Virus record (IMG/VR): IMGVR_UViG_2645727555_000009
Span: 1-9,039 of that record
Length of the DNA: 9,039 nt
Source: a virus
Lineage: Duplodnaviria > Heunggongvirae > Uroviricota > Caudoviricetes
Direction: 5' to 3' (one strand)
The notes beneath the pieces were generated by a model that saw only the letters and a list, made by a program, of their open reading frames with translations, made no database searches and had not been told where the DNA came from. The position numbers and the translations under genes were made by a program. Positions 1 through 7,711 of this stretch are shown here, piece after piece (the first letter of the stretch is position 1; every line of letters starts with the position of its first letter).

Positions 1-38
1 CGTGCGGGTGCGTTGAGGATGCCTGACACATCAGAGGT

Positions 39-60
39 GGCGAGGGATTTCTCCCTCGCC
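39..60 (-). other. Stable hairpin just downstream of the hok stop; possible mRNA 3'-end structure
   Basis: Perfect 9-bp stem GGCGAGGGA / TCCCTCGCC with a 4-nt loop, 7 nt beyond the hok stop on the transcribed strand. No U-run follows on either strand, so it is not a canonical intrinsic terminator. Confidence 0.3.
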
Positions 61-67
61 GGGTCTC

Positions 68-223
68 TTACTCCTCAGGTTCGTAAACTGTGAAGACAGC
101 GACCTCCGTCTGGCCGGTTCGGATTCGTACCTCGCAGAGGTCTTTCCTCGTTACCAGTGCCGTCACTATGACGGTTAAACAGATGACGATCAGGGCGATT
201 AACATCGCCTTTTGCTGCTTCAT
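68..223 (-). CDS. hokD: Hok/Gef family type I membrane toxin (HokD/RelF-like), 51 aa
   Basis: Translation from the internal ATG at 223 gives MKQQKAMLIALIVICLTVIVTALVTRKDLCEVRIRTGQTEVAVFTVYEPEE: a hydrophobic transmembrane helix followed by the conserved Hok periplasmic motif (RKxLCEVRIRTGQTEVA). It matches my recollection of E. coli HokD/RelF closely. AAGGAG lies 7 nt upstream of this ATG. The provided 70-aa ORF (68..280) is an in-frame upstream extension that may be a mok-like leader frame. Paralogue assignment is from memory, not a search. Confidence 0.85.
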   Translation of the reverse strand: MKQQKAMLIALIVICLTVIVTALVTRKDLCEVRIRTGQTEVAVFTVYEPEE

Positions 224-514
224 AGCCTGCTTCTCCTTGCCTTTCGGCACGTAAGAGGCTAACCTAGATTTGCCGTTCATAGATTGAGCCTCAGATTAAT
301 GTTAAGCGTCTTGCAGGACGCGTAATGTTAACTGGGGCTTTTCTCTATCTGCCTTTTGGTATTCATGCCTGAGACAGATAGCCTCAAGCACCCGCAGCAA
401 TTCTACTTAACTATCCTTTCCCCGCAAATCGTTTTTATCCCCAGCGACAAATCGAATACACCACCAGCGCCACCGCCATTGCGATCCCTACCGTTGTGAA
501 TGCCTCAGGCCAGG

Positions 515-859
515 TCATCGTAAAACATCCTCTGCGCTTATCAGTCCGTTTCGCTTCAGGTAGTCCATCGCCTTACCCGGCAATTTACAGTCCGGCTTCG
601 TTTTCCTCAGTTGCCAGGTTAACTGCTTTACCAGCATGGTTAACTCGTCGACCAGACGCTGATGTCCCACTGGTTTGTATTCATGCAATTTACCGGCTGG
701 CTCTGCTGCCAGCGATGCCAGTGCGATTTCCAGAACAGCAATATCCATCTTATATGTGCGGATGATGTCATGGTCGATTGTGCCCGGTATGCACAGTCTC
801 TGTGCTTCAATAGTCTCCTCTGCGTGAGCTATTAACTGCTCTCTGGTAAAAGTGGTCAT
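515..859 (-). CDS. Hypothetical small phage protein (114 aa), N-terminal paralogue of the 1373..1798 product
   Basis: ORF with a GAAGGAAG Shine-Dalgarno inside the upstream gene and an ATGA start/stop overlap with the 856..1371 gene. Its N-terminus ([20 protein letters not shown]...[10 protein letters not shown]) parallels MTELTKEQLIEEAKLKIAIAK...IALTSLEAEP of the 1373..1798 product, and the DNA around 690..730 resembles 1670..1710. Confidence 0.6.
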
Positions 860-1371
860 GCCGCGCTTCCTTCTTGCTTATTAACGATTACACCGTCATA
901 TATTTCATTAAGGTGTCCCCTCAACTCCATGCGCCTTAATGCAGACAACATGTAATCGCATTCAACCTGCTTATTTCCAGTAAATGGCTTATCGTCAGGA
1001 TCACCCCAACAGCAATTACCCTTGGGCCACCCATGTACTTTCCGTACTCTTCCGTTAACAACGTGAAGTAATCCCCAGCCAGGTGGTAAATCCTCAATTG
1101 AAATAATTCCCGGCTCACTAATAAAGAATCTCCAGTCGCCCATGCCAAGAGAGGGATTTTTACGGAAACGCTTTTTTCTATCTGCCAACAAGTCAGCACG
1201 AGAACACTTCGCCTCTATCAGGCATGATGCTGAATTTCTGAATCCCATAGCATCTGGTTGTTCTCCAGTACTGGTTACAGCAACAAAGCGGTCATGAAAG
1301 CAAACCTTGAACCCGTTGCGCTTAAGGAACCTGTACGCAATCTGACAGAGTTCGCGGTGTGTTAACGCCAT
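856..1371 (-). CDS. Putative PD-(D/E)xK nuclease-fold protein (Hjc / VRR-NUC-like N-terminal domain) with a Cys-rich C-terminal region, 171 aa
   Basis: The N-terminus has the layout helix ([19 protein letters not shown]), then GEQPD, then CLIEAK 11 residues after the PD, i.e. a PD...ExK motif as in Hjc/VRR-NUC resolvase-type nucleases. The C-terminal part carries several Cys (NCCWGD, ECD). Start is coupled to the upstream gene (GGAGAATGAGATG). Fold assignment is by motif recognition only. Confidence 0.5.
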
Positions 1372-1372
1372 C

Positions 1373-1798
1373 TCATTCTCCTTTGATGCGAATGTTTACA
1401 ACCTGACAAACCTCTTTGAGTACCCAGTCAACAGCGTCTTTCCACGCTCCAGTCTCAACTGGCGGATTCTCACGTTTTACTTGTTCATAGAAGTGCACAG
1501 CTTTAACCAGTCCTTCAGGTACTACAGGCACTGGCGGCATGCGATACAATGGAGTAACACAACGCGAAGCCTCATATTTATCTGACGGACGCTGAAATAT
1601 CTCACCGAACCCATATTTTTCAATATCTCGCAGTTCCTCGTCGTCAGTCCATGCCACCGGTTCTGCTTCCAGCGATGTCAGTGCAATTTTGAGTAACTCA
1701 CCCTCTACTCGTGCCACGCCTGAATTGGGATGGCATTTCGCAATCGCTATTTTTAATTTGGCTTCTTCGATTAATTGCTCTTTTGTTAATTCAGTCAT
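1373..1798 (-). CDS. Hypothetical small phage protein (141 aa), modular: N-terminus paralogous to the 515..859 product, C-terminus (…IRIKGE) shared with the 2228..2689 product
   Basis: ORF whose stop lies 1 nt before the next start. Shares an N-terminal ~50-aa module with the 114-aa protein and a C-terminal GxW…IRIKGE tail with the 153-aa protein. Confidence 0.55.
   Translation of the reverse strand: MTELTKEQLIEEAKLKIAIAKCHPNSGVARVEGELLKIALTSLEAEPVAWTDDEELRDIEKYGFGEIFQRPSDKYEASRCVTPLYRMPPVPVVPEGLVKAVHFYEQVKRENPPVETGAWKDAVDWVLKEVCQVVNIRIKGE
1377..1394. repeat. 18-bp exact direct repeat TCTCCTTTGATGCGAATG, copy 1, at the 141-aa/171-aa gene junction
   Basis: Identical 18-mer to 2256..2273. On the coding (minus) strand it reads CATTCGCATCAAAGGAGA, encoding the C-terminal RIKGE and supplying the AAGGAG ribosome-binding site for the next gene. 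Confidence 0.9.
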
Positions 1799-1893
1799 TT
1801 TTCATTACCGCTCTTTCTGGCGGCCTCCTGATGTTCTGAGGGTGCAGAAATCCCTCCGGCTAAGGATTAAATTTTTAACAGTTCTAAATTTAA

Positions 1894-2250
1894 CTATTCA
1901 GTTCTGGATTTTGTCGCCCTGCGTATCCGCGCTTTCGCGTTACGCTCAATCTGAATTAGCTTTTCTATATTTTTCCGTCTTTCCCGTTCCTCCTGACGCA
2001 ATAGCCTTACATCATCTGCCAGTCTGGTTTCTCTTTTCGCCACAGAGAGCATCCAGTCAAATGGCTCCACAACTGCGCCGCAGATTTTACAGCGGACCTG
2101 ACGCTCTTTTTCATCAACCCGGACAGAGGCGTGATGGCAGTATGGTCTTTCCGATGGCTCATAAAGAAAATTAACCTGATTACGCGGGTCATCCTCTTTT
2201 ACAGGAAATAAAACGATATTGCTTAACTCATCCTCTGGTTTTATTTCCAT
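1894..2250 (-). CDS. Hypothetical zinc-ribbon protein with a basic coiled-coil C-terminus (118 aa)
   Basis: Strong Shine-Dalgarno AGGAGAGGAG before the ATG at 2250. Contains CHH…(x16)…CKIC, a likely Zn-binding motif, and an Arg/Lys/Glu-rich C-terminal helix. No family recognised. Confidence 0.55.
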   Translation of the reverse strand: MEIKPEDELSNIVLFPVKEDDPRNQVNFLYEPSERPYCHHASVRVDEKERQVRCKICGAVVEPFDWMLSVAKRETRLADDVRLLRQEERERRKNIEKLIQIERNAKARIRRATKSRTE

Positions 2251-2689
2251 GCTCCTCTCCTTTGATGCGAATGCCAGCGACGCGTAATGCGTGTTCTAGG
2301 TCAATCAGGTAAAGCCAACTGCCATTTTCTTTAGGTATCATGACATGTCGCTCATCTGCATTTATCGGGTGTCCATATCGAAGGTCGTAGCGAGTCGGTA
2401 ATTGAACTTCCCGCGCTTCCAGTGCAGCAATACGCTTGCTCCCATCAGAGATAACGCCTTCGTAATACTCACGCTGCTCGTTGAGTTGTGATTTTGCTTC
2501 TTCCAGTCCATCCAGCAAATCAGCGATAATATCCGCTTCCCGATGACGGATGTGACGCTTAAACGCAGCAAGAGCCGCATCACAATCCCGTTCAGCATTT
2601 GGGCTGTCCGGGATAGCCTGATACCACGCCAGCGTCGACTGATAGTTTTGTGCTGCCTCACGAAGCGCCTCATAGTTAACCTCTCTCAT
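2228..2689 (-). CDS. Hypothetical phage protein (153 aa) sharing the IRIKGE C-terminal module
   Basis: GAGGTGG Shine-Dalgarno and ATG at 2689, with an ATGA overlap onto the upstream gene's stop. Its 3' end overlaps the next gene's start by 23 nt. Confidence 0.55.
   Translation of the reverse strand: MREVNYEALREAAQNYQSTLAWYQAIPDSPNAERDCDAALAAFKRHIRHREADIIADLLDGLEEAKSQLNEQREYYEGVISDGSKRIAALEAREVQLPTRYDLRYGHPINADERHVMIPKENGSWLYLIDLEHALRVAGIRIKGEEHGNKTRG
2256..2273. repeat. 18-bp exact direct repeat TCTCCTTTGATGCGAATG, copy 2, at the 153-aa/118-aa gene junction
   Basis: Exact match to 1377..1394; flanking DNA is not conserved. Confidence 0.9.
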
Positions 2690-2982
2690 TGAGCCACCTC
2701 CTGATAAATCACCGCATGCCCCAGTTTCTCCGCCAGTGCCAGCTCTGCCTTAGCGCCCGCTGACCGCTGCCAGCCATTCAGCATGTAAATCGCATCCACA
2801 CAACGAATCATTGCCATGCAAATATCCATGTAGTGCGGCTGTGTCAGCCCGTCCGGAAGTACTGCCGGGTTTAAGACGGTATGCCCTTCCCGTTTCAGTT
2901 CCTCTTCCGCCTTGTGAAACGCCTCACGGTTGAAATTTTCATATCCCGTCATTGGACCGGCAATATAAACTCTCACCCTCAC
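2686..2982 (-). CDS. DUF4406-like protein (nucleoside 2-deoxyribosyltransferase-like fold), about 98 aa
   Basis: Proposed GTG start at 2982, with AGGAGG 8 nt upstream and overlapping the upstream stop. The N-terminal motif VRVYIAGPMTGYENFN…VLNP is what I recall for DUF4406/NDT-like proteins. The provided ORF (to 3051) is probably over-extended at the 5' end. Confidence 0.55.
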   Translation of the reverse strand: MRVRVYIAGPMTGYENFNREAFHKAEEELKREGHTVLNPAVLPDGLTQPHYMDICMAMIRCVDAIYMLNGWQRSAGAKAELALAEKLGHAVIYQEVAQ

Positions 2983-4186: not shown

Positions 4187-4927
4187 TCAGTTCCTGTGCT
4201 GGCTGACGTTCGGACGCCAGCTCTCCCAGTTAAACGTCACCCAGCGACCACCGTTCATGACCATGCGGTCCATCACACGCTCGCCAAGAAGCGTACTCAT
4301 CGCTACGTGGTTCAGGTTCGTCAGCATTCCGACACTACGCATCGAAGCCGTTCTGCGGTCGACTATCTGGTTCAGTGTGACCTGCTCGTTGCGCGTATCC
4401 CGCTGCATTCCGATTTCATCCAGGACAAGCAGGTCAACATCACACAACCCCTGTAAAAATTTTTCGCCTGAGTTTTTGTTGTCGTAGCTGTTGTGTAACG
4501 CCAGCATCACATCAGCCACCGTTATCACAATCACGCTGCGACCTTTCGCCAGAAGATGATTGCCAATGGCGGCTGCAAGGTGGTTCTTTCCGGTACCCGG
4601 CTTACCGCTGAACACAAAATTCGTGCACCCTGTCATCAGTTCGTCAGCGATGGATTTTGCCTGGCTCAGCGCATGTTTTTGCCCGTCGTTCTGCACCTGA
4701 TAATTCGCAAACGAGCATTTGCTGTGCAGAGGCTGGATGCCCGAACGATTCAGGATTTTTTCCACCCGCAACTGGCGATTCTGGCGGTTGATCTCCTCGC
4801 TACGTTTTCGCCCTTCTGCCAGTTGCCACTCGCGCCACTCGTCCACTGTCCGGTACGGCGCGATTACATGCTGCGGGGTCAGCTTACGGATACGCTCAAG
4901 AACACCACCTGTCGCGATATTTTTCAT
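4187..4927 (-). CDS. DnaC-like AAA+ helicase loader (phage P-protein functional analogue; YdaV/IstB-like ATPase)
   Basis: Walker [16 protein letters not shown] and Walker [10 protein letters not shown], 246 aa, AGGGGGTAA Shine-Dalgarno, lying immediately downstream of the initiator gene. Confidence 0.85.
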
Positions 4928-4933
4928 GGCCCG

Positions 4934-5899
4934 TTACCCCCTGAACCCCGGCGGAATTTCGGTATCCGGCTCAGAAATATGATTCACGCAACGCTGTACA
5001 GACGAACGCCCCAGGCGGATAACCAGTTCATCCCATTTTTCGCGAAGCTTTGACGGACTCATGATATTTTTTACCCAGAATGGATCCCGCTGCGCCCGAC
5101 CAAACATTTCACAAATTTGTCTGTGAGTTCTGCCATCCAGCATCCGCATTGTGCGCACGTCGTTGGCCCATGCGGTCCAGTTGGGTTCTTTCGGTCGCGA
5201 AATCTCGCCATCATCGCTGGCGGCCTGCTCGTAAAGACTCACGATTCGTCCCCAGATCCACTGCGCACACGCCAAATCTTCCTGGTTGCCCCACTGGCGT
5301 TTTTTTGCACTGAACACAACCGCGTCAGGGTGTCGGGTTAAAAAATCCTGTTCAACCGTCTGCGGGTCCGGTTGCGAAGCTTCCGGACGAGAAGTGTTTT
5401 TATTCTCTGTAGTAATCTCTGTTGTATTCTCTGTAAGATCATCAGGCCATTTTGACCCGATGACATTGAGTCGTTTTGAACCAATGGAACGTGCCATTTT
5501 GGCCCCTTCCATCGTGTCATTCTGACCTGATGGAGCAGCGCATTTTGACCTGATGGATTCGCTCACTTTGCCACCATTTAAAAGCTCGCTCTCGTAATTA
5601 ATCGTGTAAAAATTAGTCATATCACGCTTTGATTTATTGAGCTTTTCGCAACGCAAAAGCCCCAGCGTTTTCAGACTTGCAAATGCGCGTTTTAACGTTG
5701 ACTCTGACCAGAACGGGAACTGCTCCAGCCATTGTTCTGTTGTGTTATAAATCCAGCGAACACCATCACATTCCATGCCGGAACCGGTATCTCTCAACCA
5801 GTAATGCAACTGCTGCAACACGATGGCTTCGTTCAGACCAATTTTCATCGCCAGCTGCGTGTTTATAACCAGCGGACGTTCAGCAAAAAGGAGCTTCAT
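4934..5899 (-). CDS. Phage replication initiation protein (lambda O-like / YdaU-like), with the origin iterons inside the coding sequence
   Basis: Long ORF upstream of the DnaC-like gene. ATG at 5899 (MKLLFAERP…); the provided ORF extends to a TTG at 5923 that overlaps the ydaT stop. Five iterons lie inside the coding sequence, encoding the repeated IGSK peptide. The C-terminus is the type typically fused to helicase-loader-recruiting initiators. Confidence 0.75.
   Translation of the reverse strand: MKLLFAERPLVINTQLAMKIGLNEAIVLQQLHYWLRDTGSGMECDGVRWIYNTTEQWLEQFPFWSESTLKRAFASLKTLGLLRCEKLNKSKRDMTNFYTINYESELLNGGKVSESIRSKCAAPSGQNDTMEGAKMARSIGSKRLNVIGSKWPDDLTENTTEITTENKNTSRPEASQPDPQTVEQDFLTRHPDAVVFSAKKRQWGNQEDLACAQWIWGRIVSLYEQAASDDGEISRPKEPNWTAWANDVRTMRMLDGRTHRQICEMFGRAQRDPFWVKNIMSPSKLREKWDELVIRLGRSSVQRCVNHISEPDTEIPPGFRG
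5448..5558. repeat. Putative phage replication origin: five iterons (consensus CATTTTGACCTGATGGA) with about 23-bp periodicity, followed by a moderately AT-rich segment (5560..5640)
   Basis: Iteron starts at 5448, 5472, 5495, 5518 and 5541 (spacing 24/23/23/23). The two best copies are CATTCTGACCTGATGGA (5518..5534) and CATTTTGACCTGATGGA (5541..5557). The layout matches a lambda-type origin embedded in the O gene. Confidence 0.7.
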
Positions 5900-5908
5900 C
5901 CCCCCCCC
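5900..5908. repeat. Homopolymeric tract (C9 on plus, G9 on the coding strand) directly abutting the initiator ATG
   Basis: Nine consecutive C at 5900..5908. On the minus strand this is GGGGGGGGG immediately 5' of the ATG at 5899, or inside the coding sequence if the TTG at 5923 is the start. Confidence 0.9.
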
Positions 5909-5919
5909 AGAACACGTTA

Positions 5920-6345
5920 TCAATGCGCCACCACGGCATTTCCCGCCGGACCACCACGATTCATCTGATCGAACAACACGATCGCTGCCGCAACAAACTC
6001 ATCGATATCTTTCACCAGGCGCTCCCGTCGCTCGACAAGCTCCCGGTGATATTCCGAACTGTGGCTGCGCATTCGGGCCACCAGTGGAGGCGGCATTGCT
6101 TTTTCGATCGCCGGTAACAACGCCTGAATTTTTTTAACCGCATCAGGGGTGTCTTTTTCTACCCAGCGGAAAATTTTCTGGGTATTACGAGACAGGGCTT
6201 CCGGATGGCTGTCGTCATACAGTTCAGGAAACGTCATACCCAACTCAAAATAAGCCTGGGTTATTCCAGCTACTGGAACTTTTTCGCCATCAGGACGCGC
6301 CCAGGCATTCATTGCCATGCGGATGTGTTCATGCTTGATTTTCAT
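5920..6345 (-). CDS. ydaT: YdaT-like protein (proposed cII functional analogue of Rac/CP-933P-type prophages), 141 aa
   Basis: Sits second in the rightward operon, directly after the Cro-like gene and before the replication genes. Its size and N-terminus (MKIKHEHIRMAMNAW…) fit my recollection of the YdaT family. Family assignment is from memory. Confidence 0.55.
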   Translation of the reverse strand: MKIKHEHIRMAMNAWARPDGEKVPVAGITQAYFELGMTFPELYDDSHPEALSRNTQKIFRWVEKDTPDAVKKIQALLPAIEKAMPPPLVARMRSHSSEYHRELVERRERLVKDIDEFVAAAIVLFDQMNRGGPAGNAVVAH

Positions 6346-6604
6346 GAATCACCCCCGCCTCTGGTTGTGTGTTAGCCTGATACTCGACAGGTAAGCCGTC
6401 GGTTGGGTTGGGATAAGTACTGCCATCAATCTCGTGCGGAGTTACTATCCAGCCTGTTGCTTCGCACCAGCGTAAAATTTTTTTCCCCGTAAGTTTCGCC
6501 CGTCCGGTAATGACATGGCTTACCATCCCTTGGGTTACCCCAACAATTTCAGCAAAATGCTTCTGAGTTATACCGGAATGATGCAAATATTCTCCAAGAT
6601 TCAT
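6329..6604 (-). CDS. ydaS: Cro-like HTH regulator (YdaS/DicC-type), 91 aa
   Basis: First gene of the rightward operon, divergent from the repressor gene. HTH segment ITQKHFAEIVGVTQGMVSHV; GAGGTGA Shine-Dalgarno 5 nt before the ATG at 6604. Confidence 0.65.
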   Translation of the reverse strand: MNLGEYLHHSGITQKHFAEIVGVTQGMVSHVITGRAKLTGKKILRWCEATGWIVTPHEIDGSTYPNPTDGLPVEYQANTQPEAGVIHENQA

Positions 6605-6711: not shown

Positions 6712-7212
6712 ATGAAAAGAAAATCCCTGTCAGAGATCGACCTGCAAGCCGCCCAGAGACTGAAAGAAATCTGGACGGCGAAAAAAAATCAACTAGGGTT
6801 AACCCAAGAGCGTGCGGCAGAAATTCTGGGATTTTCGACACAGGGAGCTGTAAGCCATTATCTAAATGGTCAGACACCTTTAAATCTTGAGGCTGTTATC
6901 AAGTTCGCAGGGTTGCTGCAAGTTCCTCCCGAGTCAATCAGACCAGATATGGCCGAGTTGTTACAAATTGTAAGGATGTATCCCCAAGAATCTGGGGAGG
7001 ACAATGTTGTCACTATATCTGCAGATATGGAACAATCGGAAAACGAACTTCCGTTTAATATAGACCCCATGGAGCGGGATTTGCTCCAGACGTTCAGGGC
7101 TTTCCCCAAAGAAGATAAAGAGAAAATGCTTAAGGAAATGAAGGAGAAAAAAGAATCAATTGAAGAAATCGTTGCGCGATGGCTAGCTGCGCAAAAGGGT
7201 CGTCGCGCCTAA
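6712..7212 (+). CDS. paaR2: Prophage repressor at the cI position (PaaR2-like HTH_XRE regulator), 166 aa, lacking a LexA/S24 autocleavage domain
   Basis: N-terminal HTH (LGLTQERAAEILGFSTQGAVSHYLNG), divergent from the Cro-like gene. The C-terminus is E/K-rich with no Ser-Lys peptidase motif. It is followed by an antitoxin/toxin pair, as in the O157:H7 paaR2-paaA2-parE2 locus. The gene symbol is a recollection-based assignment. Confidence 0.6.
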   Translation: MKRKSLSEIDLQAAQRLKEIWTAKKNQLGLTQERAAEILGFSTQGAVSHYLNGQTPLNLEAVIKFAGLLQVPPESIRPDMAELLQIVRMYPQESGEDNVVTISADMEQSENELPFNIDPMERDLLQTFRAFPKEDKEKMLKEMKEKKESIEEIVARWLAAQKGRRA

Positions 7213-7229: not shown

Positions 7230-7421
7230 ATGAGTACAGCCCTTTCCCCGATAATTTCTGAATTTGAAACAGTCGAACAAGAAAACAGCTATAACGAATG
7301 GTTGCGAACCAAAGTGGCAGCAAGCCTCTCAGATCCCCGTCCTGCAATTCCACATGACGAAGTAATGGCTGAAATGGAAAACCTTATTGCTCAATTAGCT
7401 GCAACGAACAGGAGTGAGTAA
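7230..7421 (+). CDS. paaA2: Small antitoxin of a ParE-type toxin-antitoxin module (PaaA2-like), 63 aa
   Basis: Strong GAGGAGG Shine-Dalgarno; 63 aa, acidic; its stop overlaps the toxin start (TAATG). Size, position and sequence (…SEFETVEQENSYNEWLR…PRPAIPHDEV…) fit my recollection of PaaA2. Confidence 0.6.
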   Translation: MSTALSPIISEFETVEQENSYNEWLRTKVAASLSDPRPAIPHDEVMAEMENLIAQLAATNRSE

Positions 7422-7711
7422 TGCTGCCCATTTTATGGCTACCTTCTGCACGTGATGATTTACGTCAGATCGTAGCCTATATTGCTAAGGAAAACCCTCC
7501 CGCTGCACGTAGACTAAAAATACGCATTGAAACATCAGTTTTGTCACTTACTGAACACCCTTATCTGTACCCACCGAGCGAAAGAGTTCCAAGTCTTCGT
7601 GAGATAGTGACTCATCCTAACTACATAATACTTTACCGAGTAACAGCATCTAACATCGAGATCGTAAATGTAGTTCACTCACGAAGACAGTATCCAAACA
7701 AAACCTGTTAA
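7421..7711 (+). CDS. parE2: ParE/RelE-superfamily toxin (ParE2-like), 96 aa
   Basis: Translationally coupled to the upstream antitoxin by a 1-nt overlap. The sequence has the ParE-family pattern (…LRQIVAYIAKENPPAARRL…YRVTASNIEIVNVVHSRR). Confidence 0.7.
   Translation: MLPILWLPSARDDLRQIVAYIAKENPPAARRLKIRIETSVLSLTEHPYLYPPSERVPSLREIVTHPNYIILYRVTASNIEIVNVVHSRRQYPNKTC

Follow-up and report, generated by a model that had tools for sequence, protein, structure and literature searches.

Genomic Context of the Locus

We analyzed a stretch of viral DNA of 9,039 nt (hereafter the window), which is part of a lambdoid prophage of E. coli whose early-right operon runs on the minus strand (Table 1). Three coupled minus-strand ORFs coding for proteins of 141, 171, and 114 aa (orf141, orf171, and orf114) are placed between the replication genes and a hok/mok-type toxin gene, in agreement with the first-pass annotation of this DNA, which had reported a three-ORF cluster before Hok. 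The same annotation had located the cluster at the distal end of the operon, and this part was not borne out: in a prophage of E. coli 23CRST047 that is 100% identical over window positions 1-2700, the operon runs on beyond hok with genes for DUF968, RusA, and DUF1133.

Table 1. Features of the prophage window, with plus-strand genes first and minus-strand features in the order in which they are read.
Feature	Position	Strand	Remarks
HTH repressor gene	6712-7212	+	
PaaA2-ParE toxin-antitoxin pair	7230-7711	+	
DUF1391 gene		+	
Cro-like HTH gene	6329-6604	-	first in minus-strand order
YdaT	5920-6345	-	after the Cro-like gene
Putative replication initiator, 329 aa		-	after YdaT
DnaC/IstB-like loader	4187-4927	-	after the initiator
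DUF1627, then DUF977, then DUF4406 genes		-	between the loader and the Ead/Ea22-like gene
Ead/Ea22-like gene	2228-2689	-	after DUF4406
Zinc-ribbon protein gene	1894-2250	-	directly before orf141-orf171-orf114 in this order
orf141, 141 aa	1373-1798	-	Eaa/Ea22-type mosaic protein: common N-terminal segment, variable middle, C-terminal ...IRIKGE
Cassette junction CATTCGCATCAAAGGAGAATGAG	1372-1394	-	encodes orf141 ...IRIKGE-stop; holds the orf171 Shine-Dalgarno sequence
orf171, 171 aa	856-1371	-	stand-alone PD-(D/E)xK endonuclease-fold protein; unnamed phage family, sister to MmcB-like (PF06319)
Predicted catalytic core E37-x-P39-D40 ... E53-x-K55 (GEQPD ... LIEAK)	1207-1263	-	from conservation and alignment
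Family signature S57-R-x-D60-F-x-x-D64-x-x-K67	1171-1203	-	directly after ExK; common to MmcB-like proteins
orf114, 114 aa	515-859	-	small mosaic protein: common N-terminal segment plus a C-terminal domain known from N15 gp45-region and ST64B proteins
hok/mok-type toxin gene	68-280	-	PF01848, E=6.4e-22; hokD in the identical prophage; context, forms no unit with orf171

Coding Status and Expression of orf171

orf171 is a real gene under purifying selection. Its dN/dS was 0.095 against the common E. coli/P7 allele, and comparison with orthologues of other genera gave saturated dS and dN values of 0.07-0.25. The end of orf141, AAAGGAGAATGA, is followed by a single G and then by the ATG of orf171; as the final codons of orf141 read ATC AAA GGA GAA TGA and stop 1 nt before that ATG, they constitute the Shine-Dalgarno sequence of orf171. 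At the other end, the stop codon of orf171 and the start codon of orf114 overlap in ATGA. The AAAGGAGAATGAGATG junction upstream together with this overlap downstream demonstrates that orf171, which comes after the replication genes, is translated as part of the early-right operon, being coupled to the preceding gene by a Shine-Dalgarno sequence inside the last codons of the latter, and confirms that the 171-aa ORF is coupled on both sides, as had been suggested earlier. No promoter of its own was found for orf171, with one weak promoter-like site within orf141, fewer than in shuffled sequence, and the search for its own terminator on the coding strand was negative as well.

PGAP calls the first 179 nt of orf171 a 'frameshifted' pseudogene in each of the five RefSeq records of E. 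coli that were inspected, and the record identical to the window is among those mislabelled. Translation revealed an intact 171-codon ORF in four of these copies, and the fifth was interrupted by an IS3 insertion. P7, the single RefSeq phage record inspected, has the full orf171 CDS annotated. In addition to the IS3 insertion, several E. coli genomes, O157:H7 strains among them, carry 514-nt alleles; because some copies are disrupted, the gene is dispensable for lysogens.

Nuclease Fold and Family Assignment of orf171

The orf171 protein carries the two motifs that had been noticed before, GEQPD (residues 36-40) and CLIEAK (residues 50-55). Among 40 diverse representatives of the family, L8, D40, D60, G78, and R81 were invariant, and conservation of at least 90% was observed for H5, E37, P39, G43, E53, K55, F61, D64, K67, and R70, as well as for G76, P96, W99, G100, L101, E137, R146, and R147. 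In 30 Enterobacterales sequences, D40, E53, and K55 were all invariant. HMM alignment placed the catalytic positions on the PD and E-x-K of 3DNX and Sulfolobus Hjc, and the segment S57-K67 on 'SSRADFQADAKW' of 3DNX. The signature E-x-K-x-S-R-x-D-F-x-x-D is present after strand 3, where the HMM alignments to 3DNX show 'IECKSSRADFQAD'. Searched with the single orf171 protein, the PDB sequences returned noise only; a family profile was needed, and it matched 3DNX with E=1.2e-4, exactly over PD...ExK-SRxDFxxD.

The AlphaFold2 model (pLDDT 80.4, pTM 0.76) has an alpha-beta-beta-beta-alpha-beta core. When this model was compared by Foldseek with the BFVD viral models, 'MmcB-like DNA repair' proteins were retrieved at E-values from 6e-7 to 1e-4. 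Against the PDB, Foldseek gave no significant match; full-length structural similarity to 3DNX was found, although 3DNX was not listed by that search. The PD-(D/E)xK fold and the D40/E53/K55 constellation, corresponding to the D ... (D/E)-x-K motif of strands 2 and 3, are conserved in the orf171 family. The earlier proposal of a PD-(D/E)xK, Hjc-like nuclease fold is therefore well founded, as these residues are invariant or nearly so and relatives touch both the Hjc and the MmcB-like family of Pfam.

For the window protein, no Pfam family was matched even at E<=1. Among the 40 relatives, sub-threshold matches to Hjc and MmcB-like were obtained for 25 and 13 sequences, respectively. The best relative reached 21.0 bits against MmcB-like (PF06319; gathering threshold 22 bits), and the best of ten relatives scanned individually reached 17.4 bits against Hjc (PF01870; gathering threshold 21.1 bits), the lowest Hjc E-value among all 40 being 1.3e-4. 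Since all Pfam scores lie under threshold and the PDB gave no Foldseek match, orf171 represents an unnamed sister family of MmcB-like rather than a part of PF06319, and extends the MmcB/Hjc branch of PD-(D/E)xK nucleases by a new, so far unnamed member. It has family-specific motifs (GMGDWRF, PxGWGLL, and SALRR) and matches no NCBIfam or PADLOC model, only PHROGs of unknown function; no NCBIfam model matched any of the five window ORFs tested.

The Cys-rich C-terminal extension, which had been regarded as a feature of the protein, did not prove to be conserved. Variation at C120 and C121 is seen already among Enterobacterales, the family as a whole keeps none of the C-terminal cysteines, and the Cys-containing stretch has the lowest confidence in the AlphaFold2 model. 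A zinc-binding Cys tail was rejected because the cysteines are not conserved.

Mosaic Nature of the Flanking Genes

orf141 and orf114 share 36% identity over their first 56 aa (E=3e-5), and at the DNA level a repeat of 31 nt with 87% identity; both match phrog_660, 5117, 60, and 3323. The N-terminal similarity of the two flanking proteins, previously described as paralogy, is thus real, but it is not specific to this pair: full-length orf141 was found in 24 E. coli genomes and its first ~150 nt in 455, where this segment is elsewhere fused to DUF551 and other C-terminal parts. As the N-terminal ~150 nt are widespread without the rest of the gene, the 'paralogy' comes from an N-terminal segment that is promiscuous within the Eaa/Ea22 set of mosaic genes. 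Relatives of orf141 are named 'protein Eaa', ead/Ea22-like, or DUF551 fusions in the source annotation. A copy of orf114 with 92-93% amino acid identity follows an HNH endonuclease gene in phage ArgO145 and an EaA gene in vB_EcoS-689R5, and in an Stx2a phage orf171 lies between a different pair of proteins with a longer version of the common N-terminal segment. orf141 and orf114 are Eaa/Ea22-type mosaic genes, which became neighbors of orf171 via cassette shuffling at conserved junctions and are not its functional partners.

Positions 3-143 of phrog_660 match orf141 and positions 146-193 match the C-terminus of orf114, which hinted at a single 193-aa gene into which orf171 had been inserted. 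We rejected this split gene as unproven, because orf114 is intact behind other genes, orf141 is itself mosaic, and phrog_660 seems to be a heterogeneous mosaic cluster.

Similarity to other phages is limited to window positions 838-1394 (~557 nt) and stops sharply at ~1394, the outer end of the junction that closes orf141. An exact repeat of 18 nt is present at 1377-1394 and 2256-2273. The cassette junction likewise stands ahead of orf171 in P7, O157:H7, a P1-like plasmid, and further contexts, as well as ahead of other genes.

Distribution and Contexts of the orf171 Family

A profile search over 1.84 billion representatives gave 3,359 clusters at 50% identity (2,428 at E<=1e-10), mostly of ~160-aa proteins. 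orf171 was present in 931 of 5,426 complete E. coli genomes (17%), and tblastn detected the family in 644 phage records, including strictly lytic Ackermannviridae. The homologue abuts the DNA primase gene in Vi01 and Erwinia phage Bue1, is one gene away from the primase in Vibrio phage K364, lies between two helicases and the pol III beta gene in SSP002, and directly precedes an SSB-family gene in Leptospira LE1. In P7, orf171 shares an operon with a 'DNA primase' gene; in Dolphis and 431E48.2, the homologue follows a DNA methyltransferase gene; and in the window, it is downstream of the genes for the initiator and the DnaC-like helicase loader. Homologues of both lytic and temperate phages therefore sit among replication, recombination, and DNA-modification genes.

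We also surveyed the immediate neighbors of orf171 homologues in 31 GTDB species representatives of other genera (n=57). They were heterogeneous, comprising Ead/Ea22-like genes (7), DNA methyltransferases (5), NinB (2), NinG, DUF968, DUF551, and even TraV/TraC. No recurrent partner gene emerged from these 31 loci: two of the 57 neighbors were orf141-like and none was orf114-like.

At the level of the cassette, orf171 was found at ~95-97% identity in the exo-xis (pL) region of O157:H7 and Stx phages, in the pR region here, and in P7 and P1-like plasmids, where it belongs to the C1-controlled 'hea' operon. These pL, pR, and P7/P1-like contexts differ in the genes up- and downstream. The orf171 protein is not mentioned in the papers that model the exo-xis region.

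Discussion

The structure 3DNX (Silicibacter pomeroyi SPO1766) belongs to PF06319/DUF1052/COG5321, a PD-(D/E)xK family related to archaeal Holliday-junction resolvases (PMC3424549; PMC1189080). MmcB is an SOS-induced PD-(D/E)xK endonuclease that protects Caulobacter from mitomycin C (PMC9578287), and MmcB-like proteins are encoded by chromosomal genes, mostly of Alphaproteobacteria (PMC3424549). The orf171 family is nearest to PF06319, with Hjc more distant, but it differs from MmcB-like proteins in scoring below the Pfam cut-off, in having motifs of its own, and in being carried by early or replication operons of phages and prophages, most of them from Gammaproteobacteria, instead of by the chromosome. 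SOS (LexA) regulation and protection from mitomycin C or cisplatin are known only for Caulobacter MmcB; the orf171 gene lies in a phage early operon. With archaeal Hjc (PF01870; 1HH1, 1OB8), orf171 has the PD-(D/E)xK core in common, its PD and E-x-K aligning with the Hjc catalytic residues, and many family members give weak Pfam matches to Hjc; this is the resemblance behind the call made in the first-pass annotation. RusA and Rap/NinG occupy the same neighborhood, the early-right operon of lambdoid prophages, and a common link to recombination intermediates is plausible; however, their folds and families are unrelated, and orf171 gave no match to PF05866 or PF05766. The identical prophage has a RusA gene of its own downstream of hok, and in another species NinG is encoded by a distinct neighboring gene. 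The fallback reading of orf171 as a RusA/Rap-type enzyme was consequently abandoned. As regards the flanking proteins, orf141 ends in the K/RGE motif of Ea22 (PMC7093339), and both orf141 and orf114 are modular in the same manner as Ea22/Ead/EaA of lambda, P22, and Stx phages (PF13935 and relatives), with a common N-terminal segment and a variable C-terminal part. Neither of them reaches any Pfam threshold, and here they are in the pR operon, not in the exo-xis region.

The replication-module contexts, together with the lack of a promoter and terminator of its own, lead us to infer that orf171 is likely to function as an early-expressed, metal-dependent endonuclease on intermediates of phage replication, recombination, or repair. 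Such an enzyme would bind Mg2+, in a two-metal or one-metal arrangement, at E37/D40/E53/K55 and cut DNA; by analogy with MmcB and Hjc, its putative substrate might be a branched, stalled-fork, or lesion-containing phage DNA intermediate. The explanation that best joins all observations, and which we hold to be probable with moderate confidence, is that orf171 is a PD-(D/E)xK endonuclease of an MmcB-sister phage family acting on phage DNA intermediates, with flanking genes that are no partners. Counting against it are several contexts that adjoin DNA methyltransferases instead of replication genes, the lack of any Pfam match for the window protein, the redundancy of a resolvase role beside RusA, and the disrupted E. 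coli copies. A more specific form of this explanation, which we put forward only tentatively, is that the family may be the phage counterpart of MmcB, an early endonuclease incising crosslinked, damaged, or stalled-fork DNA for genome replication. Such a role would account for the company that the gene keeps, namely primase, helicase, and SSB genes in lytic phages and the replication operon in lambdoid prophages; if it is true, the prophage would represent the case of a genome induced by the same DNA damage that injured it.

Several other roles were weighed against action on phage DNA intermediates in general. A canonical dimeric Hjc-type resolvase, resolving four-way junctions in concatemers before packaging, would make orf171 functionally analogous to RusA, Rap, or T7 endonuclease I. 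As the prophage already encodes RusA, this strict role would be possible but redundant, and we consider it rather improbable. Unlikely, too, is a host-takeover or counter-defence nuclease that would degrade host DNA or host defence nucleic acid rather than process phage DNA. Its placement in an early operon would suit such a function, as would the adjacent methyltransferases (the five in the 31 loci and those of Dolphis and 431E48.2), which could protect phage DNA, and the presence of the family in Vi01-like phages, which carry hypermodified DNA. Nevertheless, a methyltransferase neighbor is lacking for most homologues, the window copy among them, the closest characterized relative is a repair enzyme, and nothing points to toxicity, the gene being stably carried in 17% of E. 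coli genomes. The sharp boundaries and many contexts of the cassette would be accounted for by a selfish, homing-type free-standing endonuclease, which would cut genomes lacking the cassette at the empty junction GGCATTCGCATCAAAGGAGAGTGA and be copied in by repair. The ~557-nt cassette (838-1394) does recur with ~95-97% identity in contexts as unrelated as the pL region of Stx phages, the pR region here, and P7/P1-like plasmids, always between the same two junction sequences; moreover, in ArgO145 the place immediately before orf114 is taken by an HNH endonuclease gene, and lambda holds the upstream junction with no gene after it. However, the same junctions also flank non-nuclease genes in the region and are therefore general mosaic joints. 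Unlike decaying homing genes, the family is deeply conserved under purifying selection, and its catalytic residues have stayed intact in many bacterial phyla as well as in lytic phages with syntenic replication modules. Selfish spread of the E. coli cassette with the conserved Ea22 junction as target is thus quite unlikely, and less likely than the role of a phage counterpart of MmcB.

The least probable of the alternatives, and a very unlikely one, is the three-gene accessory or defence module that had been proposed at first, in which anti-phage defence or superinfection exclusion would be exerted by the nuclease as effector and the two small paralogues as sensors or regulators. None of the 5,027 models of PADLOC-DB v2 matched orf114, orf171, or orf141 at E<=0.1. 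The partners are not kept across the 31 species, and conserved co-occurrence of orf141, orf171, and orf114 was dismissed, since each gene is found elsewhere without the other two; orf114 and the N-terminal segment of orf141 are widespread without orf171. Furthermore, the family adjoins primase in strictly lytic Ackermannviridae and lies inside the replication modules of lytic phages, orf171 is coupled within the lytic early operon without a promoter or terminator of its own, the neighbors are heterogeneous, and the Cys tail is not conserved. The defence-module reading is largely refuted by this distribution, and a false lead is thereby removed.

With its occurrence in 17% of complete E. coli genomes, in Stx-converting phages, and on P1/P7-like plasmids, orf171 is among the commoner unnamed genes of enterobacterial prophages, and its family extends to the replication modules of Vi01-like lytic phages, yet it has no Pfam or NCBIfam model. 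The main interest of the family is that it is so common and so poorly annotated. Its assignment to the MmcB/Hjc branch leads to a testable function, that of a DNA-processing enzyme of phage replication or repair. The advance is incremental, a further uncharacterized phage nuclease and no new kind of system.

In addition, the locus bears on the terminal 'K/RGE' motif of Ea22, which has been described as having unknown significance (PMC7093339). At the DNA level this motif reads (GGC)ATTCGCATCAAAGGAGA(G/A)TGA, a conserved inter-cassette junction that gives the following gene its Shine-Dalgarno sequence, whichever gene that is. Lambda retains the junction after ea22 although no coupled gene comes next.

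The Ea22-type junction and the slot beside orf114

Ea22-type proteins carry a C-terminal K/RGE motif that has been termed "of unknown significance" (PMC7093339). Our analysis showed that this motif is coded by a conserved junction, GGCATTCGCATCAAAGGAGA(G/A)TGA, within which AAGGAG is the Shine-Dalgarno sequence for the next, translationally coupled gene. Across many phages the junction stands before differing downstream genes; in lambda it is kept after ea22, with no coupled gene behind it. An exact 18-nt repeat of the junction occurs in the window, where the gene for a 118-aa zinc-ribbon protein is coupled to the Ead/Ea22-like gene through this junction. In phage ArgO145, an HNH endonuclease gene lies directly upstream of the orf114 homologue, is ATGA-coupled to it and fills the slot held in the window by orf171. 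One and the same position thus alternates between two nuclease genes that are unrelated to each other.

Annotation and integrity of orf171

Five E. coli records were inspected, and in each of them RefSeq/PGAP places a "frameshifted" hypothetical pseudogene over just the first 179 nt of orf171. Translation showed that the 171-codon frame is intact in four of them, the fifth being interrupted by an IS3-family element. The orf171 family is thus systematically absent from these E. coli protein sets. Several E. coli genomes, O157:H7 strains among them (matches H63-H67 and H69 of the genome search), carry orf171 at 514 nt rather than 516 nt, a difference that is likely a real frameshift. Given these alleles and the IS3-interrupted copy, orf171 is dispensable in lysogens.

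Genomic neighbours

DNA methyltransferase genes were the immediate neighbours of orf171 homologues at about one-sixth of loci. The homologue in Pseudomonas phage Dolphis is wrongly annotated as "adenylosuccinate synthase". Within the window, the repressor gene of the prophage is followed directly downstream by a PaaA2-type antitoxin/ParE toxin pair, which together with hok brings the toxin loci in the 9 kb to two. For the 329-aa protein in the replication-initiator position, a Pfam search returned no match at E ≤ 0.001.

Features of the window and of the extracted comparison loci (L)
Feature	Location	Strand	Evidence
PaaA2-type antitoxin and ParE toxin	window 7230-7711	+	PF21217, E=1e-21; PF05016, E=7e-18
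118-aa protein, C-x2-C...C-x2-C zinc ribbon	window 1894-2250	-	weak TFIIB zinc-ribbon match, E=1.6e-4; phrog_1621
329-aa protein, replication-initiator (lambda O) position	window 4934-5923	-	
18-nt junction repeat	window 1377-1394 and 2256-2273		
Junction after lambda ea22	L051 340-375		
HNH endonuclease gene coupled to orf114 homologue, ArgO145	L006 2139-2845		
orf171 5' part, equivalent of the 179-nt pseudogene calls	window 1193-1371		RefSeq/PGAP
179-nt pseudogene calls	L002 9193-9371; L003, L004, L005 4001-4179; L043 2928-3106		RefSeq/PGAP
IS3-family element in orf171	L043 3261-4474		
orf171 homologue adjoining methyltransferase gene, Dolphis	L049 2254-4133		
Same, Vibrio phage 431E48.2	L055 1891-3082		
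Same, further homologues	several of L009-L041
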